DNA of 32,000 nt from Gemmata obscuriglobus (GTDB lineage Bacteria; Planctomycetota; Planctomycetia; Gemmatales; Gemmataceae): NCBI RefSeq assembly GCF_008065095.1, contig NZ_CP042911.1:6930001-6962000 (forward strand), given 5' to 3'. The notes under the pieces were generated by a model. It had not been told where the DNA came from and did no database searches. It saw only the letters and a list, made by a program, of their open reading frames with translations. Shown here in pieces: positions 831 to 20,740 of the stretch (position 1 is its first letter; each line of letters starts with the position of its first letter). A program made the position numbers and the translations under genes.

Positions 831-2287
831 GTACTTGTTTAGCGCGCCGGTAGTAGCACAGGGCGAGGTAGGAGCCGGTTGCCGAACCATCGCAACGTTT
901 GGCTGATGTGATCCACGACCGAGAGGGTCCGGCGGCGGCACGTCTCGAACACGGACATCAACACGCCTTGCGCCTTCGCGCCCGCGGCGGTCCGGTTCCC
1001 GCCCCACACCTTGCGGTTCACAACCGCGGGGCGAATCGCCTGCTCGGCCTTCCAGTTGGTGGGCTCGACCCGCGGGTCGAACACGAATGTAAACCACTGC
1101 TCGAAATGGTTCCACAGGTGCTTCGCCAGCGTCACGTACGCCGGCACCGCCCGCGGTCGCGTCACCAGTTCCAGCAGGCGGTCGTCGAACTGCGACCGTG
1201 CGCGTCCCGTTGGTCGTCGGTCCACGTCCCCGGCGCGTACTCATTCCGCCAGTGGATCGCCTCGGTGAACCGCGCGATCACCTGGCGCGGGAACCGCACG
1301 GCCCCGCGGGTCCCCCGCTCCAGCAGTTCCCGCGCGCGGCGGAGCACATGGGCCAGGCACTGCTGGTGGATCGCCCCCTCGAATCGCTCGTAGGAGGCGA
1401 ACCCGTCGTGGCTCAGGACGCCCGACCAGTCCGCCCCGATCACCCGCTCCAGGGCGTCGGCACTGCGTTTCGAGTCGACGCCGTAAGCCGTGGCCCGGTC
1501 GGCGACCCACGCGTGGAGCCAGGCCGGGTGCCCTCCGATCCGCCAACCCGTCTCGTCGGCCGCAATCTGCTCGGACGCCCGCACCTCGCCGAGGATCAGG
1601 TGGTAGTCCGGCTCCAGCCGCGTGGCGGCCCGTAGGCCGATCTGGGCGCTGGCCCCGCGCGTCAGCGTGATGCCGAACAGGGTCTCGAAGACCGACGCGA
1701 CCTTGCCGTGCGACAGCCCCATCTGGGTGTGCAGGAGCGCCGCCGCGGTCTGAGCGTCCGGGCCGACCTGGCTGGCCGCCGCGCCCAGGGCGTCGGACGT
1801 CTGGAGCGGGTGCCGGCCCTGGGTCCGCTTCCCGCACGCCTCACAGTGCCCGATGTGGATACGGAACTTGCGGATCAGCGGCTGGCGTGGGATCTCGGTC
1901 TGGAACTGTTCGGCCGTGCCGGTCTCGACGAGCCGGCCCCGGCAGTGCGGGCACGCGTCGGGGAGGTCGGCCTCGTGGCACTCGGCGACCTGTTCGGGTG
2001 GGGGCGGCGAGCGGTGACCGTGCTTGCCGTGGACATCGCCCGACTTGCGGCCGGGTGGCTTCGGGTTCGGCTTGGGCGGGCCCTTGCGGAACGGAGCGGC
2101 CTGCCGCTTGCCGGCGCGCGTGGCCTCGTCCAGCCGCCGGGTCAGTTCGGCGACCTGGGCCGTGAGTTCGGCGACTTGCTTGGAGAGGTCCCGGCAACCG
2201 GGACACACGAGCTCGTCCATACCGCGATGTTACCAAATCGGCCACCGATCCGCTGCACCCCCGCTGACAGGAGCGCTAAACAAGTAC
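831..2287 (-). mobile_element. IS66-family insertion sequence (1457 bp, transposase-only type) inserted into the IS4 transposase gene
   Basis: Perfect 15-bp terminal inverted repeats GTACTTGTTTAGCGC (831-845) and GCGCTAAACAAGTAC (2273-2287). They are flanked by the direct 8-bp duplication CCGGAGAC (823-830 and 2288-2295); 8 bp is the usual IS66 target duplication length. Confidence 0.85.
839..2220 (-). pseudogene. IS66-family transposase split into two overlapping frames (1162..2220 and 839..1225)
   Basis: ORF 1162..2220 has an N-terminal coiled coil (QVAELTAQVAELTRRL), a zinc finger CPHCRG...CEACG and the DDE core. ORF 839..1225, in another frame, holds the conserved IS66 C-terminus FVFDPRVEPTNWKAEQAIRPAVVNRKVWGGNRT. 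The two frames overlap at 1162-1225, which implies one indel. Confidence 0.75.
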
Positions 2288-2626
2288 CCGGAGACGTTGT
2301 CCGCGGCGGTGGGGGGGCTGAGCGTGGTGGCGGTGGGCCTGCTGGGCCTGCGGGACGCGGCCCGGGACTCGACCCAGAGCGCTCAACCGGCGGCCCCACT
2401 GGTGGGAGCCACCGCGGTCGAGGCGCTGAGCATCTGGCGCACCGGGCGGTCCGAGCCCAACTGGTCCGTGGGGGCGTTCGTGCTGGCGCTCGGGCGATTG
2501 GGCGGGCACATGAACCGACGACGGGATGGAGTGCCCGGCTGGCTCACCCTCTGGCGCGGCCTTCGAAAGCTCACCCCCATGATCCACGTACTCAAAAAGG
2601 CAAGGCCAACTTGTGGCATAACATGA
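2288..2626 (+). pseudogene. IS4-family (Tn5-like) transposase, 3' portion resuming after the IS66 insertion
   Basis: Reading from the second CCGGAGAC copy gives PETLSAAVGGLSVVAVGLLGLRD...LGGHMNRRRDGVPGWLTLWRGLRKL. This resembles the Tn5 SILSFVAVRLLQLRE region and the C-terminal dimerisation region. Deleting 831-2295 in silico restores one continuous frame. Confidence 0.8.
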
Positions 2627-2781
2627 GCTCTTAACCCCAATACCGTTCAATCGGGGGTTTACGACAGTAGGGCTTCCAAGCAAGCTGGTGTTTACCACAA
2701 ATAGGCCATTCACCATGCCCGCTCTCGATCATAAAGTGCCTTCTGGTAACGACTTGATGAGCCCGAGGTGCCGAGGAAATG

Positions 2782-2955
2782 ATGATCCTATGCTCCACAT
2801 TTGATCGTTTCGTGAATGGTAGCCCCATTAGCGTGATGGCTCGGGCGGCCGTCGAACATGCCCTTTGTGCGTCCGCCCTGGATGAACTATTCGACCGCAC
2901 CGCCGAGCGAGGTTATATACCCTACCCGGCCAGCACTGTACTTTGCGCGAAGTTA
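2782..2955 (+). pseudogene. Short 5' remnant of another transposase-like gene, cut off at the IS701-family element
   Basis: ATG at 2782 with GAGG 6 nt upstream. MILCSTFDRFVNGSPISVMARAAVEHALCASALDELFDRTAERGY resembles, from memory only, N-termini of IS4-type DDE transposases. A stop occurs just before the IR at 2956, and no continuation is seen after 4460. Confidence 0.3.
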
Positions 2956-4460
2956 TAGCACTACAGCGCTACTTTGACCTAACTGTAGATTTTGCCGGCC
3001 GTTTCGGCTTTGGCGTTCTTGGTATTTTGCGCGTTCGTGGCTGAACGACGCGTCGTTGTTTGGACGCGGTGGCGGCCCGATTGCGGCGCTGGTGGTACGC
3101 GATGACCTCCAACACCCAGACCCGTGTCGTGGTCTCCCGGGCCCGCTCGAGCCACTCGCGGCTCAGTAGGGCCAGGGCCCGGCACACCTGCTCCGCGGTC
3201 ACCTGGGGATTTTTCCCCCCGCAGTTGTTGGGTGTGTTCGGCCACGAACCCGAGCATGGCCACGCACAGACCCAGGTGCCGCCGCAGGGCCACATAGTTG
3301 CGGCCCTCGAAGTGGGTGAACCCGAGCTCCGATTTACAGATCCGGAACACGTGCTCCACGGCCGCCCGGCGGAACCCGACTCGGACCAGGGCCTCGGCCG
3401 TGGACCCGACCGGGGCGTTGGACACCAGGAACTTCTCCTCGCCCGTCTGGTCGCTGCACGCCCACACCAACCAGTACGGACCCGGCGACCAACCGGCCGC
3501 GCCCGAGGCCCACACCCGGACCCGCTTGGCCCGCCACACCTGGTCCTCGGCGGTGGCCCGGGACAGGCGCAGGATCTGCCACTCCTGGGACCGGAATGCG
3601 CCCGCCTGGCGGACCACGTCCCGGGCCTCTTGGCCCTTCACCCCGGGGACCGGTTGGGCCCCCGAGCGGGCCACCACGCGGCACGAGAACGTGGACGGCA
3701 CCTCGCCCACGAACGCCTGCGTGCGGTCGTCCAGGCCCCGCAGGAGCTCGGGGCTCTTGCCGTACTCGCTGTCGAACGTGAGCCAATCCAGGTGCACCCC
3801 ATTGGCCCGGGCCCGGTCCACCTGTTCCAGGGCCATGCGCCACTTGGGCCGGTGCACCACGTCGTCGGGAATACCCGCGGACCGGCACCGCGAGCGGTCC
3901 TCGGACCAGTCGGCCGGCAGGTACAGGTCGGCGTCCAGGAGGGCCCGGTACGAGCCCCGGGTGACACCCAGGTGCACGGTCACGATGCCGTTGTCCACCT
4001 TGCCCACGCACCCCAGGTACTGGCGACCCACCCCGGGTGTCTTGGTCCCTTTCTTGACCGCGCGGGTCTCGTCGATGAGCCCGACCGTGCCGGTGTCGGC
4101 GCCCGATTCCGCGAGCAACACGCGGGCGATCCGCTTCGGCACGTCGTGTCCCAGGGCCGCATGGCCCCACTGGTGATCCCGGAGGAACTCCTGGAGCGTT
4201 CGCACCGGGGTGCCCGCGGCCAAGGCCACCGGCTCGGCCGTCTTCCGAGGCAGGTCCGATAGCAACCCGCGGGAGTACGTGCGCAGGTGCTCGAACGTCG
4301 GGGCCGATCGGACGTGGGCTCGGAAACCCTCCAGGAACGTCGCCAGCGCCGGGCCCAGGGCCTCCAGTTGAGCTCCCGTCATCGCATCCCTCCTCAGTGC
4401 CGGGAAGCTATTTTAGTTCAAATCAACGCACTACTTGCGACTTTTAGCGCTGTAGTGCTA
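2956..4460 (-). mobile_element. IS701-family insertion sequence (1505 bp)
   Basis: Perfect 16-bp terminal inverted repeats TAGCACTACAGCGCTA (2956-2971) and TAGCGCTGTAGTGCTA (4445-4460) enclose a single IS701-type transposase gene. No flanking direct repeat is visible. Confidence 0.75.
2979..4382 (-). CDS. IS701-family DDE transposase, probably frameshifted near its 3' end
   Basis: 467-aa ORF with typical IS701 features: LIDETRAVKKGTKTPGVGRQYLGCVGKVDNGIVTVHL, DSEYGKS, VEHVFRICKSELGFTHFEGRNY. After ...QQLRGE the sensible continuation (KNPQVTAEQVCRALALLSREWLERA) lies in the other frame (ORF 2969..3295). The switch is at the run GGGGATTTTTCCCCCC (3205-3220). Confidence 0.75.
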   Translation of the reverse strand: MTGAQLEALGPALATFLEGFRAHVRSAPTFEHLRTYSRGLLSDLPRKTAEPVALAAGTPVRTLQEFLRDHQWGHAALGHDVPKRIARVLLAESGADTGTVGLIDETRAVKKGTKTPGVGRQYLGCVGKVDNGIVTVHLGVTRGSYRALLDADLYLPADWSEDRSRCRSAGIPDDVVHRPKWRMALEQVDRARANGVHLDWLTFDSEYGKSPELLRGLDDRTQAFVGEVPSTFSCRVVARSGAQPVPGVKGQEARDVVRQAGAFRSQEWQILRLSRATAEDQVWRAKRVRVWASGAAGWSPGPYWLVWACSDQTGEEKFLVSNAPVGSTAEALVRVGFRRAAVEHVFRICKSELGFTHFEGRNYVALRRHLGLCVAMLGFVAEHTQQLRGEKSPGDRGAGVPGPGPTEPRVARAGPGDHDTGLGVGGHRVPPAPQSGRHRVQTTTRRSATNAQNTKNAKAETAGKIYS

Positions 4461-4546: not shown

Positions 4547-7500
4547 TCACACCGGCGTGGCCCCCGCCGGCGGGCGGTACAGCTTGAGCGCGTGCCCGCA
4601 CACCTCCACCGCGCCGACGAGTTCACTGCACAGATCGCGCAGCGCCTTCCACAGCGCCGCCGACTCGTAGTGTTCCACCTCGGCCGGGATGTGGTCCAGC
4701 AGCGCCCGCGAGCACACCACCACGAGCCGGTCCTGAACGCGCGAGAACGCCACGTTCGCCCGGTTCAGGTTCAGCACGAACCCCGCGTTGGCCGCGACCG
4801 CGGTGGGGTCGCTCACCGTGCCGGACACGATCACCGTCGGACGCTCGCCCCCCTGGAGGCGCTCCACGGTGTCGATCACCCCGACCGCGCCGCCCGGCGC
4901 CGTGTGCGCCGCCAGTCGCGTCGCCAGCAGGCTCCGCTGTGCCCGGTGCGGGGTGATGACCGCCACCGAGCCCGCGGTCAGTGCCGGCGCCGCAGCCAGT
5001 AGCGCCTCGATCGCGGAAACTTCGACCTGGTTGCTGCGCCGCGAACCGGCCTCGTCGTGGATCGCGAGGAACAGCCCCACGTTCCAGCGCCACACCTCCG
5101 ACCACACGCCCCCGCCCCCCTCGGCGCCGGCAACGGGCGCGCGTGGCAGCCCTGCGAGTTCGATGCGATCCTTGCGGTAGATGCGCCCGATCAGCTCGCG
5201 CACGACGGGCGGAAGTCGGAACGTGAGCCGCAGCCCGGACCACATCGCGCCGCCCGCTGGTACGTGGGCATCAATGATCCGCCGGACCGCGTCGTAGGCA
5301 CTGGCGAACGGCTGGTACAGCACCGCGGGCGGGCGGTCCTCGGCCTCCCAGTCGTGCGCCGTGATCGGCGCCAGTTGGCGGTGGTCGCCGGCGAGCAGGA
5401 TCTGTCCCTTCGGGGCCACCAGCGTAGCGAGCGCGAGGAAGTGCGGGAACACCATCATCGACGCCTCATCGACCACGAGCAGCGATGTCTGGAGCCCTTC
5501 CCCGCCGTTGTAGGTCTTGAGCTTCTCCACCAGCGGCGCGAGCTTCAACAGCCCCGCCGTCGTCCCGCCGATCACCGCCACGCCGCCCGCCGACAGCTCC
5601 GTCAGCTTCTTCTTGGTGCCCAGCAGAGCGGCCGGAATGTTCTCCACCGCCCCGCCCGCGATGTGCTGGCTCGGATCGTTGGTGTGAACCTTAACCAACC
5701 GTATTGGAAGGAGCCGGCGCCCGGCGCCCGCGGCGTGGGTGCGGAACGGTTCGAGGTAGCGGTCGATGCGCTCGAGCAGGTTGTCGAGCGCGGTGTGCGT
5801 GTGCGCCGACAGCAGCACGACGTCTCCAGGGCGCCCCGCGACCAGCACCCGCAGGAGCACGGCCAAAGCGGTCGTGGTAGTCTTCCCGGTCCCCGGCGGC
5901 CCCTGAATCAGTTGCACGCGCGTCGAAAGGCCGTCCACCGCCGCACGCGCCTGGTCGGGCGACGCCGGGTACATTCCCCCGGGCGGGAGCAAGAACGTGT
6001 CCAGCAGCTTCTGAAGCACGGTTGATTCCGCGTCCGGAAGCGGCGGCACGATCGGCGGGCGCGGGTCCACCGGGTCGAACCACGCGTACACGTGGCTCGG
6101 GCGCTGGAGCCGCTCGTCCACCCGCCCCGCGACGTAGTCCGACACGTTCTCGTCGAGCGTCGCGTACCCGCGGTCGAACAGCACCTCGGCCTTCTTGCTC
6201 GCCCCGCTCGACAGCAGGTAGCGGTCCTCCTCGGCGTACATCGCGTCGAGCGTGACCTGCCCGGTCTTCCAGTTCACATCACGCACCACACAGGTGCGCC
6301 CGACCGCCGAAGTGAGCTGCGCGACCGCCTGCCCCTGCTTCGGGTCGCCGTTCCAGGGCGAGAGGCGCGCGAACGCGCCCGGCCCGAACTGGCACCGGGC
6401 TTCGAGGTCCGCGAGCTTCAGCCCGCCGAACGCGAACAGCTCGATCACGCCCGTGATCGTGCTCTTGTCCGCACCCACCTTCACCTGCTTGAGCGGGAGC
6501 GTGCGGCCCGCCGGAACGCGGCCGATCGGCGGCACCAAGTGCATCGCCACCCAGTCCGAGCGCCGCACGTGCTGGTCGAGCCGGAGGAAGTCCGTGGCGG
6601 CGCGGGCCACGCCGTCGCGGCCGAGCTTGAACGCCGGTAGCGCCTTCGGGTCGAGCGGCGCCTTTTCGATCCCCGGGTTTTTCGGCCCAATGCACTCTTC
6701 GAGCCAGCGGAGCGCTTGCACGCGGGCCAGCAGGTACGCTTCGAGCAGCCCCGGCGCCCCGGCCACGCGGTAGCGCTGAACCGCCTCTTGTGCCCGCGGG
6801 TCGCTGTCGGGCAGTGTGCCCCAGACGGCGTGCCAGTATGGTGCCGGCAGCCCGTCGCCGAACCGGGCGCGGACTTCAAATGTGTGCTTCGCACCGGCCC
6901 CTTCTGTGGTCCAGTCGCCGTTGGGCGCGATGTCGAGATCGGCCACGAAGTCGAAGACGCCTTGCGCGAACACCCGGGACAGGTCGCACGCCGCGCCGTT
7001 CACCGCGCGCGTCCAGTGGAACCGCCGCCCGGCCCACTCCAGGGAAGCGACCACGCCCAGCCCGCGCCCGGTCCAGCCGAGCGCGTACCGGCGGTTCACC
7101 TCTTCGCGAACGGCCGAGTACATCTGCTGTTCCAGCCCCTCGCGGCAACCGAACAACTGGCGCACCGGGCCGAGCAGTTCCGGCCCCGCCCGGCAGCACC
7201 CCTCAATGAGGTAGCGCACGTCCGACCGCGACCACACGTAAAAGTGAACCGGCGCCGGCTCGCCCCCGGCCGCCCGGGCGATCACCCCCGCGAGCCGGTC
7301 GAAGAACCGGCGGATCAGTTCGCCCTCGGCGGCGGTGTCGGCCGCGTAGTCCGTTCCGCTCCACGGGACCGGTTGGAACTCCACCACCTCGCCCTCACCG
7401 TGGAGTGGGCGGCACTCGTGAACCGGCTTCCCGAAGCGGTCCTTTCCGCTCTCGGTCAGCTCCTGAACACCCGGAACCGGCGCGCCGTCGGCGAACGGCG

Positions 7501-8686
7501 TGTCGATGCGCTGGGGGCCGCGGGTAACGTGCGCGGCCAGCGCCCCAACCCGGTTCTCGGTGTAGTCGTAATCGACCGCCAGGTACACGCGCAGGAGCCG
7601 CGTGCCGTTGGCCTCGTGCGGCGGCAGGTGCCCGACGCCGGTGTTCGGAACCGGCTCGACTCCGGAACTCGGCACCGGGCGCGAACCGGGGAGCACGGGC
7701 AGCGTGTGCAGACGCGTGCGGGCGCGCAATCGCAGCACATCCAGGCTTTCCGTGAACCCGGGATCGCGGGCCAGCGCCTCGATCTTCGGCTCGAACATCG
7801 GCGGGTTGGCGAGCTGGTCCAGGGTGCCCAGCCCGGCGCCGCGGAGCAGCCGCGTGGTCACGGGGTCGATGCCGAGCAGCTCCACCTGGCGCAACCGCGC
7901 GCTTTCGGCCATGCAGTGCGGGGCGAACGTGCAGCCGTCGCACTTAGTATCGATCTGGAACCCCAGCTCCGCGAGCGGGCGCGACGCCGCGGCATCGAGC
8001 CGCCCGCCCGGCGCGAGCAGGCGCACGAGGTCGGCCTCTTCGTGCGCCAGGTCGAGCGCCGGGAGCGCGAGGATGGACTGGGTGGTGTTGCGTTCGGGGT
8101 CGAGGCGTGCGACCACGCACTCGATCGCCTCGGGCGCCACCGCCGCGCCGCCGATCACCACCGGTCGGCCGCCGAGCAGCCCGCGGAGCAGCACCCGGTA
8201 CGCGGTCACCTGCACGCGGTGGTAGGTGCGGTCGCGGCGGCTGGCCTTACACTCCACCAGCACCAGCACCGGCCCGGCGCCGGTCCACTTCACGAGCATG
8301 AAGTCGATGAGCCCGTACACGCGGAACGCGCCGACGGTGCCCCCGACGGCCACCTGGCGCGCGTACCCCGACGCGCCGGGCGGGAGCGCTTCCAGCACCG
8401 CCGCAATGGCGGACCAGGTCACTTCATCCCGCTTCCCCTTCGGGAGCGGCGCGGCCAGGTCGCGAAACCCCGCGGCCTTCAGCTCCGCTTCCCACTGGTT
8501 CTCGCGCCGGCGCCCGAGTTCGGCCAGCACCGGGTCGAGGTCGGTGCGCAGCCGGTCGAAGAACGGGAGCGGCTCCGTCTCGCGCGCGGCGTGGACCGCG
8601 AGGTGGAACCGGCGGTCGCAGGAGTGGTGGCGGACGTACTCCCCGAGGTCGGTGGCGGTGATCGTGAGCCCGGATGGTGCGTTCAA
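4547..8686 (-). CDS. Cas4/RecB-like PD-(D/E)xK Fe-S nuclease fused to an SF1B (Dna2/Upf1-type, AAA_11/AAA_12) helicase, 1379 aa
   Basis: N-terminal nuclease motifs: GLID128F, VE145CK147AS, Q159vtaY163. Four Cys at C23 and C249dgC252tfaphC258 sit in the Cas4/AddB/Dna2 cluster spacing. HhH-like LLGIDPVTTRLLRGAGLGTLDQL. C-terminal helicase motifs: LIQGPPGTGKT (G929), LLVVDEASM, LLAGDHRQLAPI, VITPHRAQ, DTVERLQGGERPTVIVS, NRANVAFSRVQDRLVVV. The first canonical start in the ORF is TTG at 8686. Confidence 0.85.
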   Translation of the reverse strand: MNAPSGLTITATDLGEYVRHHSCDRRFHLAVHAARETEPLPFFDRLRTDLDPVLAELGRRRENQWEAELKAAGFRDLAAPLPKGKRDEVTWSAIAAVLEALPPGASGYARQVAVGGTVGAFRVYGLIDFMLVKWTGAGPVLVLVECKASRRDRTYHRVQVTAYRVLLRGLLGGRPVVIGGAAVAPEAIECVVARLDPERNTTQSILALPALDLAHEEADLVRLLAPGGRLDAAASRPLAELGFQIDTKCDGCTFAPHCMAESARLRQVELLGIDPVTTRLLRGAGLGTLDQLANPPMFEPKIEALARDPGFTESLDVLRLRARTRLHTLPVLPGSRPVPSSGVEPVPNTGVGHLPPHEANGTRLLRVYLAVDYDYTENRVGALAAHVTRGPQRIDTPFADGAPVPGVQELTESGKDRFGKPVHECRPLHGEGEVVEFQPVPWSGTDYAADTAAEGELIRRFFDRLAGVIARAAGGEPAPVHFYVWSRSDVRYLIEGCCRAGPELLGPVRQLFGCREGLEQQMYSAVREEVNRRYALGWTGRGLGVVASLEWAGRRFHWTRAVNGAACDLSRVFAQGVFDFVADLDIAPNGDWTTEGAGAKHTFEVRARFGDGLPAPYWHAVWGTLPDSDPRAQEAVQRYRVAGAPGLLEAYLLARVQALRWLEECIGPKNPGIEKAPLDPKALPAFKLGRDGVARAATDFLRLDQHVRRSDWVAMHLVPPIGRVPAGRTLPLKQVKVGADKSTITGVIELFAFGGLKLADLEARCQFGPGAFARLSPWNGDPKQGQAVAQLTSAVGRTCVVRDVNWKTGQVTLDAMYAEEDRYLLSSGASKKAEVLFDRGYATLDENVSDYVAGRVDERLQRPSHVYAWFDPVDPRPPIVPPLPDAESTVLQKLLDTFLLPPGGMYPASPDQARAAVDGLSTRVQLIQGPPGTGKTTTTALAVLLRVLVAGRPGDVVLLSAHTHTALDNLLERIDRYLEPFRTHAAGAGRRLLPIRLVKVHTNDPSQHIAGGAVENIPAALLGTKKKLTELSAGGVAVIGGTTAGLLKLAPLVEKLKTYNGGEGLQTSLLVVDEASMMVFPHFLALATLVAPKGQILLAGDHRQLAPITAHDWEAEDRPPAVLYQPFASAYDAVRRIIDAHVPAGGAMWSGLRLTFRLPPVVRELIGRIYRKDRIELAGLPRAPVAGAEGGGGVWSEVWRWNVGLFLAIHDEAGSRRSNQVEVSAIEALLAAAPALTAGSVAVITPHRAQRSLLATRLAAHTAPGGAVGVIDTVERLQGGERPTVIVSGTVSDPTAVAANAGFVLNLNRANVAFSRVQDRLVVVCSRALLDHIPAEVEHYESAALWKALRDLCSELVGAVEVCGHALKLYRPPAGATPV

Positions 8687-11422: not shown

Positions 11423-14400
11423 ATGCTGCTCTCGACCCTCTCACGCCGGTTCCGCGACACGTTCACCCCCCGTACCCGCATCGGGGCGCGCACGTGGCTG
11501 CAACTGACGGCTCTGGAGGACCGGTCGGTTCCCGCAATCCTGACCTGGACCGGGGCCGGCGGGAATACGCTCTGGACGAACGTCAACAACTGGGAAGACG
11601 AGACTCTCGCCAACGTCGCACCGGTTGCAGGGGACAGGCTGATTTTCCCGACCGGGGTGAGTGGGCTGACTAACAACGATTACCCGGCCGGCTTTACCCT
11701 GAACGACATCCAGATCCAGGGCGCGGGTTACACACTGACCGGCAACACGCTCGTTCTGACTACCGGACTGGCGGACTCGGTCGCCTCGGGCACGACCGAA
11801 ATCGCGCTGAGCATCAGCGGCGCCGGGGGCATCTCGAAGACCGGCGCCGGGGATCTGGTGCTGATCGCCGGCAACACGCTCACGGGTACGGTGACGATCG
11901 ACGCCGGAACCCTCACCATTACCGCCACCGAATCTCTGGCGGACACGGTCGCGGTCACCGTGAACACCGGCGCGAGTCTCATCCTGGACGGCGCCGACGA
12001 GACCATCGGGTCGTTGACCGGTGGCGGTACGGTCAGCCTGGGCACCTCCACCCTGACGGCGGGCGACGGCAGCGACACGACCTTCAGTGGCACGCTCACC
12101 GGCAGCGGCAATCTGATCAAGACGGGCACCGGCACGTTCACCCTGTCGGGGACCAACAGCTCCTACACCGGAACGGTCGCCGTCGACGCCGGCACGCTGA
12201 GCGTGTCCGCCGGGACGAACCTGGGAACGGGTGCGCTCACGCTGGGAGGCAGCGCCACGCTCCAGGTGACCGGTGCCACCTCGATCGGCAACGCCGTGAC
12301 GTTGAACGGGGCCGCCACGGTCGACAACGCCACGGCGGTGACGCTGTCCGGGGCGATCACCGGGGCCGGCGGGCTGACCAAAACCGGAGCCGGTCAACTG
12401 ACCCTCTCGGGGACCAACACGTACCTCGGCGGCACGACCGTTAGCGCCGGCGGACTGGTCGTCGCCAACGACGACGCCCTCGGCTCCGGCGCGCTGACGC
12501 TCGGCGGCGGGACCCTGATCTTCGACGCGGACCGGACCGTCGCCAACGCGATCACGCTCAACGCGGCGGTCAGCACCATCGTCGTCCCGCCGGCCACCAC
12601 GGTGACCCTCTCCGGCGTCATCTCCGAGACCGGCGGCGCCCGCGGGATCAACAAGTTCGACGGCGGGGCGCTGACCCTGTCCGGTGCCAACACGTTCACC
12701 GGCCCGGTCGCGCTCAACGGCGGCACGCTGACGCTCGCCGGGGGGGCCGCTGTGGCGGACACGGTGGCAGTCACCGTCGCCGGCGGCGCCACCCTCGCGC
12801 TCGGCGCCACCGAGACCATCGGCTCGCTGGCCGGTTCCGGCGCGGTGTCCCTCGGCGCGTTCGACCTCACGACCGGCGGCAACAACGGCAGCACGACCCT
12901 GAGCGGCGCCGTCAGCGGCACCGGCACCTTGTTCAAGAACGGCACCGGCACCTTCACCCTCACGGGCACCAACACCCACACGAACACGACTGTCCTCAAC
13001 GGCACGTTGAGCGTCGCGACCGACGCGAACCTCGGAACCGGTCAGATCGTCTTGGGACCCGGCACCACGTTCCAGATCACCGGAACGACCGACATCGATA
13101 ACACGATCGTGATCGGGGGCGGGGGGAGCGCGACGATCGATAACGCGCTAGCCGTCGAGTTCTCCGGCGGGCTCTCGGGCCCCGGGGGGCTGACCAAAAC
13201 CGGGGCCGGCGAGCTGACGCTCTCAAACAACTCGTCCTACAGCGGCGCGATCGTGGTTTCGGCCGGGACCCTGCTGATCGACGATAATTTCAGCAGCGCG
13301 GTCCAGGTGGCCGGGGGCGCGGTCCTGGGCGGCACCGGCGACCTCCTGGCGGTTTCGGTCGCGGGCGGCGGGACGCTGGCCCCGGGCGGGACCCCGGGGC
13401 GGCTCGACCTGACGGGCGACCTGACTTTGGACCCCGGCGCCATCCTGGCCGCAGAGGTGGTCGAAAACACGCCCGGCGCGCCCAGCGACCCGAACGACCG
13501 GGTGAACGTGACGGGCGCGGTGACGCTGACCGGTGCCACGCTGACGGTCACGACCGGCTTCACCCCGACCGCGGGCAACAGCTACATCCTGATCAACAAC
13601 GACGGCGCCGACGCGGTGGTGGGCACGTTCGTCGGTCTGCCCGAGGGCGCGACGTTCTTCGCGGACGGCGTGGGCTTCACGATCAGCTACGTGGGCAACG
13701 ACGGGAACGACGTGGTGATCACCACGCTGCCGCCGGTGGCCTCGATCGACAGCGTGACGACCGCGGAGGGCAACGAGGGCACCCACGTGGTGACCTTCAC
13801 GGTGACCCTGTCCGAGCCGAGTTCGCAGACGGTGACGATCGACTACGCGACGGCGGACGGTACGGCGGTGGCCGGCAGCGACTACGTGGCGGCGTCGGGC
13901 ACGCTGACGTTCGCCCCGGGCGAGACCTCGAAGACGATCGCCGTGGTGGTGAACGGGGACACGCAGGCGGAGGCCAACGAGACGTTCACGGTGGTGCTGT
14001 CGGGGGCGCTCAACGCGACCCTGGGGGCGGCCACCGGCACCGGCACCATCACCAACGACGACAGCGCGGCCAAGTCGACGGTGGTGAGCGTGAGCACCGG
14101 CGGCGGCACCGCGGGCACGGTGCGCCTGGTGGACCCGGTAACGGGGGCGCCGGGGCAGGAGGTCGTAGCGTTCGCGGGCTTCGGGGGCGAGATCCGGGTG
14201 GCGTCGGGGGACGTGGACGGCGACGGCCGCGCGGACACCGTCACCGGCGCGGGCGCCGGGGCGGCCGGCGGGCACGTGAAGGTGTTCGCGTCCGACGGCA
14301 CGCTGATCCGCAGCTTCCTGGCGTTCGACGGCTTCACCGGCGGCGTGTTCGTGTCGACGGGTGACGTGAACGGGGACGGGTTCGACGACATCGTGGTGTC

Positions 14401-14968
14401 GGCAGACGCGGGATCGGCGCCGCACGTGAAGGTGTTCAGCGGCAAGGACGGGGCGCTGCTGCAAAGCTTCCTGGCCTACGACGCGGGCTTCCGGGGCGGC
14501 GTCCGCGTGTCGGTGGCGGACGTGGACGGCGACGGGTTCGACGACATCGTGACCGGCAACGGCGCGGGCGCGGTGGGGCACGTGAAGGTGTTCAGCGGCA
14601 AGGACGGGTCGGTGCTGCAGAGCTTCCTGGCCTACGACGCGTTCACCGGCGGGGTGTACGTGGCGGCGGGCGACCTGGACGGGGACGGGCGGGCGGACAT
14701 TGTGACCGGTGCGGGCGCGGGCGCGGCCCCGCACGTCAAGGTGTTCAGCGGCCGGACCGGGGCGCAGCAGCAGAGCTTCCTGGCGTACGGGGCGCAATTC
14801 ACGGGCGGCGTGCGCGTGGGCGTGGGCGTGATCGACGGCCGGACCTACGTGCTGACGGGCGCCGGCCCGGGCGCCGGCCCGCACGTGAAGGGGTTCGTGG
14901 ACGGCGTGCAGGAGCTGAGCCTGCTGGCCGGTTCCCCGTCCTTCAGCGGCGGCGTCTACGTGGGCTGA
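11423..14968 (+). CDS. Large secreted repeat protein (1181 aa): autotransporter-associated beta-strand repeats, Calx-beta domain, FG-GAP/VCBS propeller repeats
   Basis: N-terminus ...LQLTALEDRSVPA. Many (G)xLxKTGxGxLTLSGxNTYxGxT units. Passenger-like segment PGGTPGRLDLTGDLTL...GFTISYVGNDGNDVVIT. Calx-beta segment DYATADGTAVAGSDYVAASGTLTFAPGETSKTIAV...ETFTVVL. Five or six DVDGDGxxDIV...HVKVF blades. AGGT lies upstream of the ATG. Confidence 0.85.
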   Translation: MLLSTLSRRFRDTFTPRTRIGARTWLQLTALEDRSVPAILTWTGAGGNTLWTNVNNWEDETLANVAPVAGDRLIFPTGVSGLTNNDYPAGFTLNDIQIQGAGYTLTGNTLVLTTGLADSVASGTTEIALSISGAGGISKTGAGDLVLIAGNTLTGTVTIDAGTLTITATESLADTVAVTVNTGASLILDGADETIGSLTGGGTVSLGTSTLTAGDGSDTTFSGTLTGSGNLIKTGTGTFTLSGTNSSYTGTVAVDAGTLSVSAGTNLGTGALTLGGSATLQVTGATSIGNAVTLNGAATVDNATAVTLSGAITGAGGLTKTGAGQLTLSGTNTYLGGTTVSAGGLVVANDDALGSGALTLGGGTLIFDADRTVANAITLNAAVSTIVVPPATTVTLSGVISETGGARGINKFDGGALTLSGANTFTGPVALNGGTLTLAGGAAVADTVAVTVAGGATLALGATETIGSLAGSGAVSLGAFDLTTGGNNGSTTLSGAVSGTGTLFKNGTGTFTLTGTNTHTNTTVLNGTLSVATDANLGTGQIVLGPGTTFQITGTTDIDNTIVIGGGGSATIDNALAVEFSGGLSGPGGLTKTGAGELTLSNNSSYSGAIVVSAGTLLIDDNFSSAVQVAGGAVLGGTGDLLAVSVAGGGTLAPGGTPGRLDLTGDLTLDPGAILAAEVVENTPGAPSDPNDRVNVTGAVTLTGATLTVTTGFTPTAGNSYILINNDGADAVVGTFVGLPEGATFFADGVGFTISYVGNDGNDVVITTLPPVASIDSVTTAEGNEGTHVVTFTVTLSEPSSQTVTIDYATADGTAVAGSDYVAASGTLTFAPGETSKTIAVVVNGDTQAEANETFTVVLSGALNATLGAATGTGTITNDDSAAKSTVVSVSTGGGTAGTVRLVDPVTGAPGQEVVAFAGFGGEIRVASGDVDGDGRADTVTGAGAGAAGGHVKVFASDGTLIRSFLAFDGFTGGVFVSTGDVNGDGFDDIVVSADAGSAPHVKVFSGKDGALLQSFLAYDAGFRGGVRVSVADVDGDGFDDIVTGNGAGAVGHVKVFSGKDGSVLQSFLAYDAFTGGVYVAAGDLDGDGRADIVTGAGAGAAPHVKVFSGRTGAQQQSFLAYGAQFTGGVRVGVGVIDGRTYVLTGAGPGAGPHVKGFVDGVQELSLLAGSPSFSGGVYVG
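11939..13240 (+). repeat. Internal tandem-like duplication inside the repeat protein gene (two ~165-codon blocks offset by 816 nt)
   Basis: Residues 173-336 (ADTVAVTVNTGASLILDGADETIGSLTGGGTVSLG...) align colinearly with residues 445-606 (ADTVAVTVAGGATLALGATETIGSLAGSGAVSLG...). The offset is 272 aa. Confidence 0.7.
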
Positions 14969-14995: not shown

Positions 14996-15040
14996 GGCCG
15001 AGGCGTGAGGGGGCACCGTTGTCCCCCTCACGCCTCGGCC
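14996..15040. terminator. GC-rich perfect hairpin between convergent genes (candidate bidirectional terminator)
   Basis: GGCCGAGGCGTGAGGGGG (14996-15013) pairs perfectly with CCCCCTCACGCCTCGGCC (15023-15040) across a 9-nt loop. It starts 28 nt after the stop of the 1181-aa gene. There is only a weak T tract (TTGT). Confidence 0.55.
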
Positions 15041-15189
15041 TTGTACCATATACGTGCCCAGGGGTTGCGCTCGCGAACTCGCTCCGCGCCCTGGCTACGG
15101 CCGGCGCCCTTACAGGCACTCAAAACAAGCACCGCGTGATTCGCGTCACCGCCGGCGAACGTGAAACGGGCGTGCCGACGCGCCAAGCC

Positions 15190-15648
15190 TCAGCTTGCCC
15201 CGTGTGTGGACGGCGGCACGCCCTCCGTGCGAATCGATTCGACCTTGGCGCCTTCCACGGGCGGCCGGTCGAGCCTGACGACGATGAAGCCGCGCAGGAC
15301 CGGGCTCACCAGAGCGACCCGGGCGCCCGCCCGGGGGTTGAGCACCGGAATCCGGTACACGGTGCCGGTCGCGCTCCCGCTGGACAGGTAATCGGCGAGC
15401 TTCTCGGGCAGTACGGGCGGGCGCTTGCCACCGAACTCGGCAAGCACGTGCTGTGCGGCTTCCCGAACGTTGTTCAGCGTCACTTGCATCCCGTCCGTCA
15501 TCATCTCTCCATACAGGGCGGTGCCACAACAAGGAGTATCGACCCGGGCGGCGGCGGATTTGCAACGCCGGCACGTCCCGTTCTCACGTGTCGCCCGCTG
15601 AGACGTGCTCCGGTTGCTCGTGTCAGATTTATTCGTTGAGTCCGTCAC
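15190..15648 (-). CDS. Hypothetical protein; the real start is probably internal (ATG at 15504 or 15501)
   Basis: Codons from MMTDGMQVTLNNVREAAQHVLAEF... to the stop have strongly GC-rich third positions like neighbouring genes. The first 48 codons use many A/T-ending codons. No recognisable motifs. Confidence 0.45.
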   Translation of the reverse strand: MTDSTNKSDTSNRSTSQRATRENGTCRRCKSAAARVDTPCCGTALYGEMMTDGMQVTLNNVREAAQHVLAEFGGKRPPVLPEKLADYLSSGSATGTVYRIPVLNPRAGARVALVSPVLRGFIVVRLDRPPVEGAKVESIRTEGVPPSTHGAS

Positions 15649-15844
15649 GCATACAGGAATTTATCCGCCGCCGGCCGAGTGGCAAACGATGCTGGGTCCG
15701 CAATTGCGAAACGCCGCGCGGCCCTCTGCGGGTCTCCGGCGCGGCGAGTTGGACTCAAATACGCAATAACAACTTATCTGTTAAGGGGCGGTCAGAAGTC
15801 GCGAGAGCGCGAGCGGGCCGGGGGTGACCAGGCCGCCACGCCCG

Positions 15845-17314
15845 TTAACCGTCCCGGAACGGCTTCTTGTCACGGTACAGTTTGAGCCGCGACTCTAAAA
15901 CCTTGCGACCGTCGGCGCCAATGGTCTTGTTCTCGAGTGTCTTGAGCAGCACCGACACGGCTTGGTCGAATTCGCCGGCCTCGGCATAAGCGGCGGCGAG
16001 CGTGTCCCCATAATCGTTCAACTTATCAAGGCTCATTGCCTTCTTGGCGGCCTCGATGGCCTTCTTCCCGTCGCGCACCGCCGGGTCGGGACAGGTCGCG
16101 CACAGCCACGCGATCTGGTGGAACGCGTACGCGTGACGCGGGTTCAGTTCGGCGAGCGTTTCGAAGCCGCGGAGCGCATTCTTGTATTCTTTCTTGGCCG
16201 CCCACCCGGCCGCGAGTTGTTGGTGGGCGTAGATGGACTTCGGGTCGAGGCGCACCGCCGCGCTGTAATCCGCAATCGCCTTGTCGTGCTCCCCCTTCGC
16301 CGCCCACGCGAGGCCGCGGTGCAGGTAGGGGGAGATGTACCGGGGGTCTAATCGAAGCGCTTCGGTGTAATTGGCGATCGCCTTATCGTGCTCCCCCTTC
16401 CCGTACCAAGCCTTGCCGCGGGTCAGGTGTGCGGGCACGTACCGGGGGTTGAGCCGGATCGATTCGTCGAGATCCTTAAGAGCCTTATCGTACTCCTTCG
16501 TGTCGTTGTACGCGTGCCCGCGGTTGCAGTACGCCAGCGAGCTCTGAGGTGACCGGCGGATCACCTCGGTGTAGTCGGCAATGGCCTTGGCGAACTGGCG
16601 CCGGTCGCTCAGCACGTTTCCGCGGCTGAGGTACGCGGACGTGAAGTCCGGTTCGAGCCGGATGCACTCGTTGAAATCGTTGAGGGCTTTATCCAGCTCG
16701 CCTTTTTCCCGCCAGCCGATCCCCCGCATGTAAAGAGCGTGGGTGTTTTCCGGGTCCGCTTTCAATTCGCGGTCCCAGTGGGCCGGCGCCTCGTCCTTGG
16801 TCACGAGGTCATCCTTATGCACCCACCCCTCGCGCACCCGATCGTGGATGCGGACCCAGCCGTCGCCGTTGTCGGACCGGACCTCGAGCGGCAAATTCGT
16901 AGACAGCGGAAACAGGAACTGGCTACCGTCGGCGTCGCGGTCGCCGAACTGGACCAGCCACGTTCGCTTCTTGGGCAGCACCTTCGCGCCGCGTGCCCAG
17001 AGGTTCTTGGCGTCAACCTTCGGAGCCGGCGCGCCCCTCTTCGGCATCTCGCGGACCGCGACCACCTCCGCCTCGCTCTTGTAGATGAGCCCGGACTCGC
17101 CCACCAGCTCCACGAACTCACCGTCGTCCGATTTGACCACGTACACTTTCGATTTGACCAGCACCGCGCCGTTCCTCAGCAGCCCGCCGGTCTGCTTTTG
17201 GCCGAGCTTCACTTCGGCCGTCAGCGTCACCGTCTTGCCGGTCCAGTCCTTGTCGTCGGCCACAGCCGGTGCGGCGAGGACGAGCAACAACATCGGAACA
17301 AATGGGCGCAACAT
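15845..17314 (-). CDS. Secreted TPR-repeat protein with an N-terminal beta-rich (SH3-like) region
   Basis: Start MLRPFVPMLLLVLAAPAVA (signal peptide) at 17314, with GGAGA 4 nt upstream. About 8 TPR units (AxxDxxEAIRLDPxxxxAYxxRG pattern, e.g. KAIADYSAAVRLDPKSIYAH). The longer 603-aa ORF would overlap the rfbF start region (to 17656). Confidence 0.8.
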   Translation of the reverse strand: MLRPFVPMLLLVLAAPAVADDKDWTGKTVTLTAEVKLGQKQTGGLLRNGAVLVKSKVYVVKSDDGEFVELVGESGLIYKSEAEVVAVREMPKRGAPAPKVDAKNLWARGAKVLPKKRTWLVQFGDRDADGSQFLFPLSTNLPLEVRSDNGDGWVRIHDRVREGWVHKDDLVTKDEAPAHWDRELKADPENTHALYMRGIGWREKGELDKALNDFNECIRLEPDFTSAYLSRGNVLSDRRQFAKAIADYTEVIRRSPQSSLAYCNRGHAYNDTKEYDKALKDLDESIRLNPRYVPAHLTRGKAWYGKGEHDKAIANYTEALRLDPRYISPYLHRGLAWAAKGEHDKAIADYSAAVRLDPKSIYAHQQLAAGWAAKKEYKNALRGFETLAELNPRHAYAFHQIAWLCATCPDPAVRDGKKAIEAAKKAMSLDKLNDYGDTLAAAYAEAGEFDQAVSVLLKTLENKTIGADGRKVLESRLKLYRDKKPFRDG

Positions 17315-17543
17315 ACGGTCTCCAAATGGGCAAATTCCGGCATGCAGTTTAGCCGGGCGGAATGAGCGGTTCAACATGCCGCCGCGAGACTCCCCCACGC
17401 GCCCCGTTCCCAGCCCCCCGCACCCACGTCGCGCGTCGCCCTGCGCAGGTTTCCGAGTCGGCCTTGCGGGCGCCGGGCCAGACCGGGTAAAGTCCCCGCC
17501 CCCCCGCAGACGAATTACTTCCGTCAGGGAGGACGGAGGACCC

Positions 17544-18311: not shown

Positions 18312-18370
18312 GGAGCGGCGGCGAGGTCCGTGACCGACCGCGAGACACGCAACCAGGAACGGAGGGCCGC

Positions 18371-20598: not shown

Positions 20599-20605
20599 GG
20601 TGGAG

Positions 20606-20722: not shown

Positions 20723-20740
20723 TATTGTCGGATCTTTGCC

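Follow-up and report, generated by a model that had tools for sequence, protein, structure and literature searches.

The architecture described below is already known: it was published and biochemically characterised as Bad (bacterial DNA2-like) of Geobacillus stearothermophilus (Wilkinson et al., NAR 2020), which the first-pass annotation of this locus had overlooked. Bad, a monomeric Fe-S cluster protein, acts as a 5'-3' translocase and helicase and as an ssDNA endonuclease, and it requires a 5' tail (PMC7430649). In Geobacilli its gene adjoins that of a DNA methyltransferase, and Bad was put forward as a restriction subunit of a new kind (PMC7430649). Eukaryotic Dna2 (mouse 5eax/5ean; PMC4716839) also carries an Fe-S RecB nuclease before an Upf1-like SF1B 5'-3' motor. 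Nhi (nuclease-helicase immunity) and the Mokosh proteins MkoA/MkoC, which belong to single- or two-gene defences, combine a nuclease and an SF1 Upf1-like helicase in one protein, and the ATP-dependent R-M systems Type III Res/Mod, class 2 DISARM (DrmMII) and Druantia II (DruM) pair a large ATPase-nuclease with a separate methylase. The TM0106 family (TIGR03491), Cas4, AddB and EXO5 are of the same nuclease class, with C...CxxCx5C cluster ligands, and are without a helicase.

We inspected a 32-kb stretch of a Gemmata genome (the window) and 20-28 kb of DNA from relatives. The window contains an uninterrupted ORF of 1379 codons with a TTG start at 8686 and a stop codon at 4547-4549. The 1379-aa, TTG-started ORF at 4547-8686 had been annotated by coordinates only; it was confirmed, and we add that its strand is the minus strand. 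Two findings back the TTG start: the 98% identical orthologue from Gemmata sp. JC717 (NCBI protein P0001) has the same length and the N-termini of homologues align with the TTG-started protein. AGGGA is present 6 nt upstream. Codon differences from the JC717 orthologue are 111 synonymous and 26 non-synonymous (dN/dS 0.09), and therefore the ORF is a real, selected gene, which is under strong purifying selection. The gene is intact and its motifs are conserved. Its features are as follows.

4547..8686, minus strand: whole gene, 1379-aa predicted Fe-S nuclease + central region + SF1B helicase (ORF list and translation)
7892..8686, minus strand: RecB/Cas4/EXO5-type PD-(D/E)xK nuclease, residues 1-265 (conservation, family-wide profiles, Foldseek)
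7697..7891, minus strand: helix-hairpin-helix (HhH) region, residues 266-330, LLGIDPVTTRLLRGAGLGTLDQLA... (weak HHH_5, short helices)
7082..7606, minus strand: putative RNase-H-like alpha/beta module, residues 361-535 (model, weak Foldseek matches)
6617..7081, minus strand: conserved Trp/Arg-rich alpha/beta region, residues 536-690 (invariant columns, model)
5972..6616, minus strand: helical stalk and beta-barrel before the motor (Upf1/Dna2 '1B/stalk'-like), residues 691-905 (model)
4667..5971, minus strand: SF1B (Upf1/Dna2/IGHMBP2-type) helicase core, residues 906-1340, Walker A K935 (Pfam, motifs)
4547..4666, minus strand: conserved C-terminal tail (LWKxLRxLC, C1353), residues 1341-1379 and stop (invariant columns)

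Conservation was measured on an alignment of 66 homologues. The catalytic residues of the nuclease (D128, E145-x-K147, Q159xxxY163) and its 'iron-staple' cysteines (C23...C249-x2-C252-x5-C258) were found where they had been placed earlier. Every sequence has D128, E145, K147, Q159, Y163, C249, C252, C258 and K935, and at least 90% of the sequences have C23. Pfam detected nothing outside the helicase in the window protein. Among ten relatives, PDDEXK_1 matched nine by Pfam, and Cas4 matched five by Pfam and nine by NCBIfam, all weakly. Foldseek placed human EXO5 at the top of the list for the nuclease (E = 3e-4), with AddAB and, as weak matches, Dna2 ranking lower, and residues 60-190 were modelled at pLDDT 80-90 even in the shallow model. 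Residue conservation, family-wide profiles and the EXO5 fold match together bear out the assignment as an Fe-S Cas4/RecB nuclease, and by analogy the window protein would bind a 4Fe-4S cluster. The HhH call finds weaker support in HHH_5 matches in 4 of 10 relatives (E >= 0.04) and in short helices at residues 268-307 of both models.

The central region (~570 aa, between nuclease/HhH and helicase) was modelled at pLDDT 88, and this model gave no PDB or viral fold match. The region occurs in 245 of 1.84 billion representative proteins, and all complete matches share the nuclease + central + helicase architecture. Its first part, residues 361-535, is modelled mostly at pLDDT >90 in the order b1-b2-(hairpin)-b3-aA-b4-aB, with D374, Y375, E377, R379, H386, D450, E454, H481, Y483 and W485 invariant and E489 and E495 at least 90% conserved. 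No Pfam family covers this part. The strand and helix order is right for the RNase-H-like module proposed earlier, while Foldseek returned RNase H, PIWI and exonuclease folds only as weak hits (E >= 0.05); on the model we tentatively suggest an RNase-H-like fold, with a possible catalytic role. The likeness of residues ~365-560 to TM0106-type nucleases is tentative as well. TIGR03491 matches locally in 10 of 10 relatives (best E = 3e-6), where it covers no more than the last part of the nuclease domain and reaches at most about residue 350. For the window protein it spans residues 246-294 at 17-18 bits, far under the cut-off of 97, and so stops before the RNase-H-like part.

Residues 536-690, modelled at pLDDT of about 70-95, conserve LGWTGRGL, W551, H557-W558, F603-E604-x-R606, Y617-W618 and R655...R660-W661, and had no match in structure and sequence searches. 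Beyond them, residues 693-726 are modelled as helices and 729-846 as a six-strand barrel (pLDDT >90). Among PDB entries matching the central model, the Upf1 helicase domain 8rd3 came first (prob 0.90, E = 0.02) and generic beta-barrels came next, in agreement with the earlier proposal of a beta-barrel preceding the helicase. A beta-barrel and stalk also precede helicase domain 1A in Dna2.

In the helicase, AAA_11, AAA_12, AAA_19 and AAA_30 score above the Pfam cut-offs, and the SF1 motifs are conserved (Q912, GPPGTGKT 929-936, DEAS 1073-1076, GDHRQLxP 1100-1107, TVERxQG 1273-1279 and VAFSR 1312-1316). PDB sequence matches are to IGHMBP2, Dna2 (E = 1.2e-8), Upf1 and RecD. The Upf1/Dna2-type SF1B assignment therefore stands, with all motifs conserved and IGHMBP2, Dna2 and Upf1 as the closest solved structures. 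In the C-terminal tail L1345, W1346, K1347, R1350 and C1353 are invariant.

The best PADLOC match of the helicase part was Mokosh MkoA (E = 3.5e-35), with MkoC (lower) and DpdJ also matching. A protein of this kind could be an RNA-directed, Upf1/Mokosh-like effector, whose helicase acts on RNA, whose nuclease acts on foreign transcripts or RNA-DNA hybrids and whose RNase-H-like module acts on hybrids. RNA helicases (IGHMBP2, Upf1, Sen1) are among the closest solved helicases, the putative RNase-H-like module has conserved acidic residues, and an NYN RNase domain is added in some relatives. Against this, the PADLOC helicase matches are confined to residues 924-1342, the generic SF1B core; outside that core the PADLOC models, including Nhi, gave nothing except Cas4 matches at E >= 0.02 in the nuclease, and none covers the central region. 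The Mokosh nuclease is of the PLD type, unlike the Cas4/EXO5-type nuclease with four cysteines found here. Fe-S nucleases of the Cas4/EXO5/AddB/Dna2 type and HhH motifs act on DNA. The recurrent partners described below are likewise all DNA enzymes (C5 DNA methylase, HhH-GPD DNA glycosylase and an AddAB-like pair), and Bad acts on DNA (PMC7430649). We consider an RNA-directed effector very improbable.

The Gemmata protein resembles Bad in having, on one polypeptide, an N-terminal 'iron-staple' RecB nuclease, a large central domain without recognisable homology and a C-terminal SF1B helicase. Both are rare and sporadic in bacteria and archaea, and in about 40% of loci with relatives of the Gemmata gene, as with Bad, a DNA methyltransferase lies next door. 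They differ in how far the Walker A Lys lies from the nuclease Asp (807 residues in the Gemmata protein, 665 in Bad, D150 to K815), in the partner found in relatives, which is a C5 methylase and not a Type-III-like N6-adenine enzyme, and in that the Gemmata copy is without any methylase. Word-index searches and the best 150 matches of a full central-region phmmer scan, most of them without an organism label, contained no recognisable Bad-family, Geobacillus or Methanomicrobia protein; the analogy with Bad is thus one of architecture and does not extend to demonstrated homology of the central domain. Dna2 lacks the ~370 extra residues between nuclease and barrel (HhH, RNase-H-like, Trp/Arg-rich), and an RPA/SSB-binding N-terminus is not evident in the Gemmata protein. 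Moreover, the Gemmata gene belongs to a family that is mobile and often linked to a methylase, and that is not universal.

Only one neighbour of the gene in relatives is both widespread and recurrent, a C5 DNA methylase (PF00145), which directly adjoins it in 16 of the 40 loci with both flanks visible (~40%), equally in genome or long-contig loci (8/20) and metagenome loci (8/20), and in 6 more loci where one flank only is visible. The gap between the two genes is -59 to +345 nt in 20 of 22 linked loci. All 18 complete copies have intact PPCQ and ENV motifs, and identities between methylases track those between the helicase-nucleases (r = 0.75); judged by sequence, the linked methylases are orthologous and catalytically intact. 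In PADLOC they match DruM2, Type II MTase and DrmMII best. The combination recalls Type III, DISARM and Druantia, from which the family differs by an SF1B unwinding helicase in place of an SF2 translocase or switch, by its Fe-S Cas4-type nuclease, by loci devoid of DISARM/Druantia accessory genes, and, in the window copy, by the missing methylase. HhH-GPD glycosylases are present at 4 loci and bring to mind Vsr/Mig, which accompany m5C R-M systems. Because of this partner, single-gene defence in the manner of Nhi, as first suggested, is not the general logic of the family, and the same partner sets many relatives apart from Nhi and Mokosh.

At none of the seven or more Gemmataceae loci examined does a methylase lie within 7-10 kb of the gene, non-C5 methylases having been screened by a crude motif search only. 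The description as a stand-alone gene thus holds for the window and all examined Gemmataceae loci, and fails for partnered relatives elsewhere. The linkage in relatives could mean that the protein is a restriction subunit of the classical kind and that the gene for its methylase lies in another part of the Gemmata genome, in a split R-M system, the copy thus not being truly solitary, which the limited spans inspected would allow in genomes of this size. This seems very unlikely, given the uniformly unlinked Gemmataceae loci and the other lineages, which keep both genes nearly always <350 nt apart; separation of R from M genes is unstable in evolution. Gemmata genomes are large, and P0025 lies on a 9.2 Mb contig.

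The gene does adjoin transposases, namely DDE_5 (2979-4382) and a truncated member of the IS66 family (1162-2220), so the annotation was right to place it at the border of an IS cluster. The cluster is incidental, because the 98% identical JC717 orthologue is without it: homology to the JC717 contig stops exactly at the stop codon of the gene, and the corresponding place there holds an LRR gene and no IS. Around it the window also holds genes for a beta-lactamase-family protein, a PATR/FG-GAP surface protein, sugar-nucleotide functions and a sulfatase, and does not form a defence island. DinB-family genes are neighbours at locus L002 and on a Chlorohelix plasmid.

These ordinary surroundings are consistent with a housekeeping role in DNA-end processing, in which the protein is a bacterial/archaeal functional analogue of Dna2 or RecD without an immune role in Gemmata, working alongside a 3'-5' helicase-nuclease (AddAB, for instance) to resect the 5' strand at double-strand breaks or to trim 5' flaps where forks have stalled. 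Eukaryotic Dna2 does such work with a 3'-5' helicase partner (PMC4716839). In Gemmataceae (about 40 clusters, 54-98% identity) the gene looks vertically kept, which fits this reading, as does the purifying selection. In one clade a convergent AddAB-like pair, in place of the methylase, lies 0-200 nt away at four distinct loci, and in Bathyarchaeia (>120 clusters with 67-100% identity, located on megabase contigs) the gene is near-core; both observations count against a defence reading and favour DNA-end processing. The DinB-family neighbours and a Salinibaculum relative between thyA/DHFR and a PolB gene point the same way. The first-pass annotation had held that syntenic core copies beside replication or repair genes would argue for housekeeping. 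Elsewhere the AddAB-linked clade and Bathyarchaeia partly approach this; in Gemmataceae there is no conserved synteny with such genes, and neighbours vary among relatives at 98%, 82% and 74% identity and four metagenome loci. Also against housekeeping, the family is rare and horizontally spread, with a sporadic bacterial distribution, and its genes are frequently on plasmids or integrative elements: a Streptomyces relative is in an integrative element with FtsK, SpdB and RepSA, an integrase is present at a Myxococcota locus and integrases on a Haladaptatus plasmid. Haloarchaeal plasmids with relatives carry SacI R-M or DUF262 genes and an HNH gene, and other defence-type neighbours are Mrr_cat with a solo Cas1, DndB, AbiE and Schlafen/AlbA_2. 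Tight coupling to a C5 methylase would be needless for a pure repair enzyme. We regard the housekeeping role as a possible, though doubtful, alternative.

We favour, with a probability of about 0.5, a Bad/Dna2-type end-loading helicase-nuclease from a methylation-linked restriction-like module, kept alone in Gemmata, where it would serve a restriction-like defence, methylase-independent or trans-methylase, with some overlap into end resection. The product would be a monomeric, ATP-driven 5'-3' DNA helicase-nuclease with a 4Fe-4S 'iron-staple' RecB/Cas4-type endonuclease placed before an SF1B motor. If it works as Bad and Dna2 do, the enzyme would thread a free single-stranded 5' end, either a tail or a flap, through its nuclease, and 5'-3' translocation would then unwind the duplex as the tracked strand is cut; polarity, substrate and biological role are all inferred. 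Between the two active sites, the HhH and the family-specific 570-aa region (RNase-H-like, Trp/Arg-rich, stalk, barrel) probably grip the duplex or the displaced strand and couple the enzyme to partners. The commonest context of the family is a restriction-like module with a C5 methylase, sometimes with an HhH-GPD glycosylase, and the Gemmataceae lineage would have retained the enzyme without the methylase, a loss scenario that uses a rough neighbour-joining tree. In Gemmata the enzyme may degrade DNA with exposed 5' tails, invading or broken. Solitary copies persist in several clades (Gemmataceae, cyanobacteria, Bathyarchaeia), which is unusual for a restriction subunit; the enzyme would therefore be harmless to unmethylated self DNA or have a non-defence role.

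The helicase-nuclease gene and the mobile elements next to it occupy the following positions of the window.

8686 to 4547, minus strand: whole helicase-nuclease gene, a single ORF of 1379 codons with a TTG start
2979 to 4382: DDE_5 transposase, apparently intact
1162 to 2220: truncated IS66-family transposase

The TTG start assigned in the first-pass annotation was borne out. The NCBI protein of the orthologue in Gemmata sp. JC717 (98% identity) is likewise 1379 aa long, the N-termini of the relatives line up with that of the window protein in the alignment, and a purine-rich AGGGA is present 6 nt upstream of the TTG. The residue numbering given there was also exact, as judged from the translation and the alignments. 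Between the window and the JC717 genes we counted 111 synonymous and 26 non-synonymous codon differences (dN/dS 0.09). The helicase-nuclease gene is real, intact and under selection; we rejected a pseudogene or relic because of the intact ORF, the invariant catalytic residues and this dN/dS value. The IS cluster, at the edge of which the gene had been placed, is indeed present (transposases at 1162–4382), but it is incidental: nucleotide homology to the JC717 contig stops exactly at the stop codon (window 4547), and JC717 has an LRR gene where the window carries the two transposases. As it is missing from a 98% identical orthologue, we rejected the cluster as a part of the system.

We judged residue conservation in alignments of 20 and of 66 homologues. 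The RecB nuclease motifs proposed from the sequence (D128, E145-x-K147 and Q159xxxY163) were invariant in the 66 sequences. The four cysteines proposed along with them span the domain in a C-(n)-C-x2-C-x5-C arrangement, in which C249, C252 and C258 were invariant and C23 was at least 90% conserved in the same set. The nuclease of the window protein itself was below Pfam detection, and PDDEXK_1 matched 9 out of 10 relatives. Cas4 was matched weakly (5/10 relatives by Pfam, 9/10 by NCBIfam). TIGR03491 (TM0106 RecB-like) gave a local match in all the 10 relatives, always far below the cut-off; for the window protein, the score was 17–18 bits against a cut-off of 97.45 and the match covered residues 246–294 only. 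The first structure model (residues 1–905, 10 sequences, pLDDT 56) was good solely over residues about 60–240, the nuclease domain, and was used for this domain only. The top four Foldseek matches of the nuclease model were human EXO5 (E = 3e-4 to 1e-3), itself an Fe-S nuclease of the Cas4 type, and AddAB and Dna2 were found further down the same list. The modelled fold resembles the AddB, Cas4, EXO5 or Dna2 nuclease, and the motifs predict an iron-staple RecB/Cas4-type nuclease with a 4Fe-4S cluster site.

The helicase was the only part of the window protein seen by Pfam. AAA_11, AAA_12, AAA_19 and AAA_30 matched over residues 909–1330, AAA_11 with 57 bits and AAA_12 with 53 bits against a cut-off of 27. 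The SF1 motifs Q, I, Ia, II, III, V and VI were tested and found to be present and invariant, the Walker A lysine K935 being invariant among both the 20 and the 66 homologues, and the PDB sequence matches were IGHMBP2, Dna2, Upf1 and RecD. These observations agree with the SF1B motifs recognized in the first-pass annotation and class the helicase, by its sequence, as SF1B Upf1/Dna2-like. A 5'-3' polarity on ssDNA would be expected from this family membership and from Bad, the bacterial DNA2-like helicase-nuclease of Geobacillus stearothermophilus.

A second model covered the central region (residues 290–905, 119 sequences) with a pLDDT of 88 and a pTM of 0.87, and had the following parts.

Residues 361–535: putative RNase H-like alpha/beta module
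Residues 536–690: Trp/Arg-rich alpha/beta module
Ahead of the barrel: long 'stalk' helices
Residues 729–846: six-stranded barrel

Against the PDB and the BFVD viral library, the central model had no match at E <= 1e-3. Its best PDB match, 8rd3 (prob 0.90, E = 0.02), is a Upf1 helicase domain. This agrees with a barrel and stalk of the Upf1/Dna2 1B type and supports the beta-barrel that had been anticipated before the helicase. An RNase H-like module had been suggested as well. The strand and helix order at residues 361–535 is that of an RNase H-like fold, but the RNase H, PIWI and exonuclease matches were weak, so that this module is plausible and not proven. Within it, D374, E377, D450, E454 and H481 are invariant, and E489 and E495 are at least 90% conserved. 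Pfam had no family over residues 330–905 in the window protein and 10 relatives. A phmmer search with these residues against 1.84 billion representative proteins gave 245 matches (84 at E <= 1e-30); in matches of 1300–1550 aa the central region sits at about residues 330–930, and the shorter matches look like contig-end fragments. By these searches the region is rare and essentially confined to the nuclease-helicase architecture. The central region, a large, conserved and confidently modelled domain without a structural relative in the PDB or BFVD, would represent a new fold. A phage origin was rejected, because the phage homologue is a 100-aa helicase fragment at most and there was no viral fold match.

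The nearest described design is that of Bad, a monomer with an Fe-S cluster that is an ssDNA-dependent ATPase, a 5'-3' translocase and helicase and an ssDNA endonuclease, and that loads from a 5' tail (Wilkinson 2020, PMC7430649). The structure of its central domain was described as 'completely unknown', and in Geobacilli the bad gene adjoins a Type-III-like N6-adenine methyltransferase, from which its authors proposed a new class of restriction enzymes (PMC7430649). Both proteins combine an Fe-S nuclease, a central domain and an SF1B helicase in one chain, a likeness at the level of architecture. However, the distance from the nuclease Asp to the Walker Lys is 807 residues in the window protein and 665 in Bad, an adjacent methyltransferase is absent at the window and the examined Gemmataceae loci, and the adjacent methylase of the wider family (16/40 loci) is a C5 enzyme. 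Searches with the Gemmata, Bathyarchaeia and Methanomassiliicoccus proteins or the central region returned no named Geobacillus or Methanomicrobia protein among the matches listed. Because of this and the differing Asp-Lys spacing, we treat the helicase-nucleases as a sister family of the same design and not as proven members of the Bad family. Nor is the window protein a Dna2 orthologue, since its 570-aa family-specific central region has no counterpart in Dna2 and the family occurs sporadically, some of its copies being carried by plasmids and integrative elements. No full-length match backed the likeness to Nhi that had been proposed: PADLOC listed no Nhi match for the window protein, its Cas4 matches were at E >= 0.02, and the helicase core (924–1342) alone matched MkoA, MkoC and DpdJ. 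Going by these matches, the protein belongs to none of the PADLOC systems. In the literature we found no follow-up to the 2020 Bad proposal; the design is already published, and no description was found of the family, its C5-methylase module or the central-region fold, which are apparently undescribed.

By analogy, we consider it probable (about 0.75) that the window protein is an Fe-S, ATP-driven 5'-3' DNA helicase-nuclease; its nuclease would lie in front of the motor and a 5' ssDNA tail would pass through it, the arrangement demonstrated for Dna2 and Bad.

Full-length relatives at 42–50% identity were found in Myxococcota, Cyanobacteria (Microcoleus, Okeania, Aphanothece, Nostoc and Calothrix), Actinomycetota (Streptomyces, Actinoplanes, Kocuria and Nocardia), Pseudomonadota (Janthinobacterium and P. 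fulva), Bacteroidota, Armatimonadota and Acidobacteriota. Relatives at 23–40% identity occur in Chloroflexota (including a copy on a Chlorohelix plasmid), Halobacteria (Haladaptatus and Halorubrum plasmids), Methanomassiliicoccales and Bathyarchaeia. The last group has more than 120 clusters at 67–100% identity, which suggests that the gene is near-core there. A Walker A-dominated pattern scan of genome contigs added at least 12 full-length or partial relatives (L004-L015), and metagenome loci were found by a scan with central-domain patterns. A 1567-aa halobacterial relative on the Salinibaculum sp. KK48 megaplasmid (L094:1311-12681) can be aligned over its whole length at 23% identity and is named 'bifunctional RecB family nuclease/DEAD/DEAH box helicase' by NCBI; it has thymidylate synthase/DHFR genes on one side and a family-B DNA polymerase gene on the other, a replication-type context. 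Two proteins, P0452 (1556 aa) and P0504 (1537 aa), have an extra NYN/Zc3h12a-type RNase domain (PF11977) fused to the family architecture. Two copies, possibly pseudogenes or assembly errors, are broken up: that of Hymenobacter (L010:9929-14169) into two ORFs of 960 and 438 aa, and that of a Microcoleaceae MAG (L008:9998-13699) into four. An upstream C5 methylase ORF of 646 aa overlaps the start of the Hymenobacter helicase-nuclease gene.

We clustered the neighbouring ORFs across 22, and then 78 loci, with mechanical ORF calling. The only widespread recurrent neighbour in the 78 loci was a C5 cytosine DNA methylase (PF00145). Where both flanks were visible for at least 1.3 kb, it adjoins the gene in 8/20 genome or long-contig and 8/20 metagenome loci; six further methylase-positive loci have only one flank visible. 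The methylase gene is mostly co-directional and immediately downstream, and the gap is −59 to +345 nt in 20 of the 22 loci. Pairs of this kind occur, for instance, in Kocuria aegyptia, Pseudomonas fulva and Streptomyces, and one of the partner methylases is at L086:12240-13463. Of the thousands of genes in a genome, few encode C5 methylases, and so an adjacency of about 40% is far beyond chance. PPCQ and ENV motifs were kept in all the 18 complete methylases and the FxGxGG motif, as searched, in 15. The methylases are mutually orthologous at 42–87% identity, apart from two divergent copies at 26–29%, and between loci their identities rise and fall with those of the helicase-nucleases (r = 0.75). 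Their best PADLOC matches were generic (DruM2, Type II MTase and DrmMII). This census by similarity covered C5 enzymes only; a crude motif screen for N6/N4 methylases found none in 342 neighbour ORFs of the methylase-less loci. With a C5 methylase beside the gene in about 40% of loci, the single-gene logic of the first-pass annotation is not that of the family in general. In rough neighbour-joining trees, methylase-linked loci are on many deep branches, and the methylase-less groups are compact clades (Gemmataceae, cyanobacteria, an AddAB-linked clade and a few others). This pattern would fit an old pairing followed by repeated methylase loss, the trees being crude and the direction inferred.

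Two other types of genes recur beside the family.

L121:10086-10718, L127:11342-12076, L101:1325-2059, L144:5104-5958: HhH-GPD DNA glycosylases (PF00730)
L087:12270-17905, L006:5634-11279, L116:10081-15542, L118:3876-6806: AddAB-like pairs

The glycosylase, the third recurrent neighbour (4 loci), comes right after the methylase in two loci and directly upstream of the helicase-nuclease, with no methylase seen, in the other two. It may accompany m5C systems as a Mig-type T:G repair enzyme, or be a functional partner itself. In the AddAB-like pair, the UvrD-type helicase has about 910 aa and the PDDEXK_1 protein about 910–960 aa. The pair is convergent with the gene at 0–200 nt in one clade, made up of Janthinobacterium, Armatimonadota and two metagenome loci, and hints at a link to DNA-end resection. 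Mobile contexts were a copy in a Streptomyces integrative conjugative element, integrases near some loci, and haloarchaeal plasmids that also carry SacI R-M, DUF262 and HNH genes. Defence-type neighbours were Mrr_cat and a solo Cas1, DndB, and AbiE and Schlafen/AlbA_2. In one metagenome locus (L091:6992-14929), an Mrr_cat restriction-type gene is on one side of the helicase-nuclease, and the C5 methylase followed by a solitary Cas1 on the other. For the whole family, a restriction-like module is indicated by the methylase linkage, which is tight and co-diverging, by the glycosylase seen in a few loci and by the mobile contexts.

About 40 clusters at 54–98% identity are from Gemmataceae. We examined four metagenome loci along with the window, JC717, a relative at 82% identity and one at 74% (on a contig of 9.2 Mb), and found that the neighbours of the gene vary among them. 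None of these loci has the methylase within 7–10 kb, nor a glycosylase or an AddAB-like pair, so that the absence of an obvious partner noted earlier holds for all of them; the cognate methylase beside the nuclease, as in an R-M-like module, is present in relatives and absent in the window. The window and JC717 share the upstream side only, with a beta-lactamase-family gene and a PATR/FG-GAP gene. We rejected the beta-lactamase-family gene, 90 nt upstream, as a partner because it is common to the JC717 contig only and not to other relatives. The rest of the window has sugar-nucleotide, sulfatase and planctomycete-specific genes and is not a defence island. Its further features are as follows.

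11423 to 14968, plus strand: PATR/FG-GAP/Calx-beta surface-protein gene, 1181 aa
15845 to 17656, minus strand: TPR gene
17448 to 18323: match to the JC717 NTP-transferase gene
18433 to 24123, downstream of the NTP-transferase gene: sugar-modification cluster (C-methyltransferase with a zinc-binding domain; NAD epimerase/dehydratase; CmcI-type rhamnosyl O-methyltransferase)

The surface-protein gene has an internal direct repeat of ~490 nt (76% identity, 14266-14746 versus 14415-14896) and is 80–87% identical to that of JC717, far more diverged than the helicase-nuclease gene (95%). A second local indel distinguishes the strains: the TPR gene and its surroundings (15000-17450) have no counterpart in JC717, whose NTP-transferase gene comes immediately after the PATR gene. 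The sugar cluster probably serves a deoxysugar or glycan pathway, with no relation to the helicase-nuclease.

For the Gemmata copy, where the methylase is missing, we favour, at about even odds, a restriction-like role that needs no methylase: the enzyme would act on DNA with exposed 5' tails and overlap with end processing. The main rival, a purely housekeeping role in resection or flap processing, draws on the clade linked to AddAB, on the nearly core gene of Bathyarchaeia and on the ordinary genes around the Gemmata copy; we regard it as less likely, though a substantial possibility. A split R-M system, with the Gemmata methylase encoded at a distance from these methylase-less loci, and an activity directed at RNA both appear improbable, in this order.

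In practical terms, the Gemmata genome gains an annotation that improves on 'AAA family ATPase'. The family broadens the restriction-subunit idea put forward for Bad to dozens of lineages with a tightly linked, co-diverging C5 methylase, and its natural 'minus-methylase' clades, such as Gemmataceae, are usable as controls. Should the pair restrict DNA, an R-M-type system with an unwinding SF1B helicase and an Fe-S nuclease would be a first. Tentatively, and with more doubt than belief, we propose that the family is the motor-nuclease subunit of a new ATP-dependent R-M class. A Dna2-like Fe-S helicase-nuclease, in place of an SF2 translocase, would unwind and shred DNA, a C5 methylase, sometimes with a Mig-like glycosylase, would mark self, and the 570-aa central region, with its novel fold, would sense whether the DNA is methylated or serve as the docking site of the methylase. 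The solitary Gemmataceae, cyanobacterial and Bathyarchaeia copies would then be domesticated descendants, now serving DNA-end processing. If true, this would represent a prokaryotic path from immunity to a Dna2-like repair enzyme.
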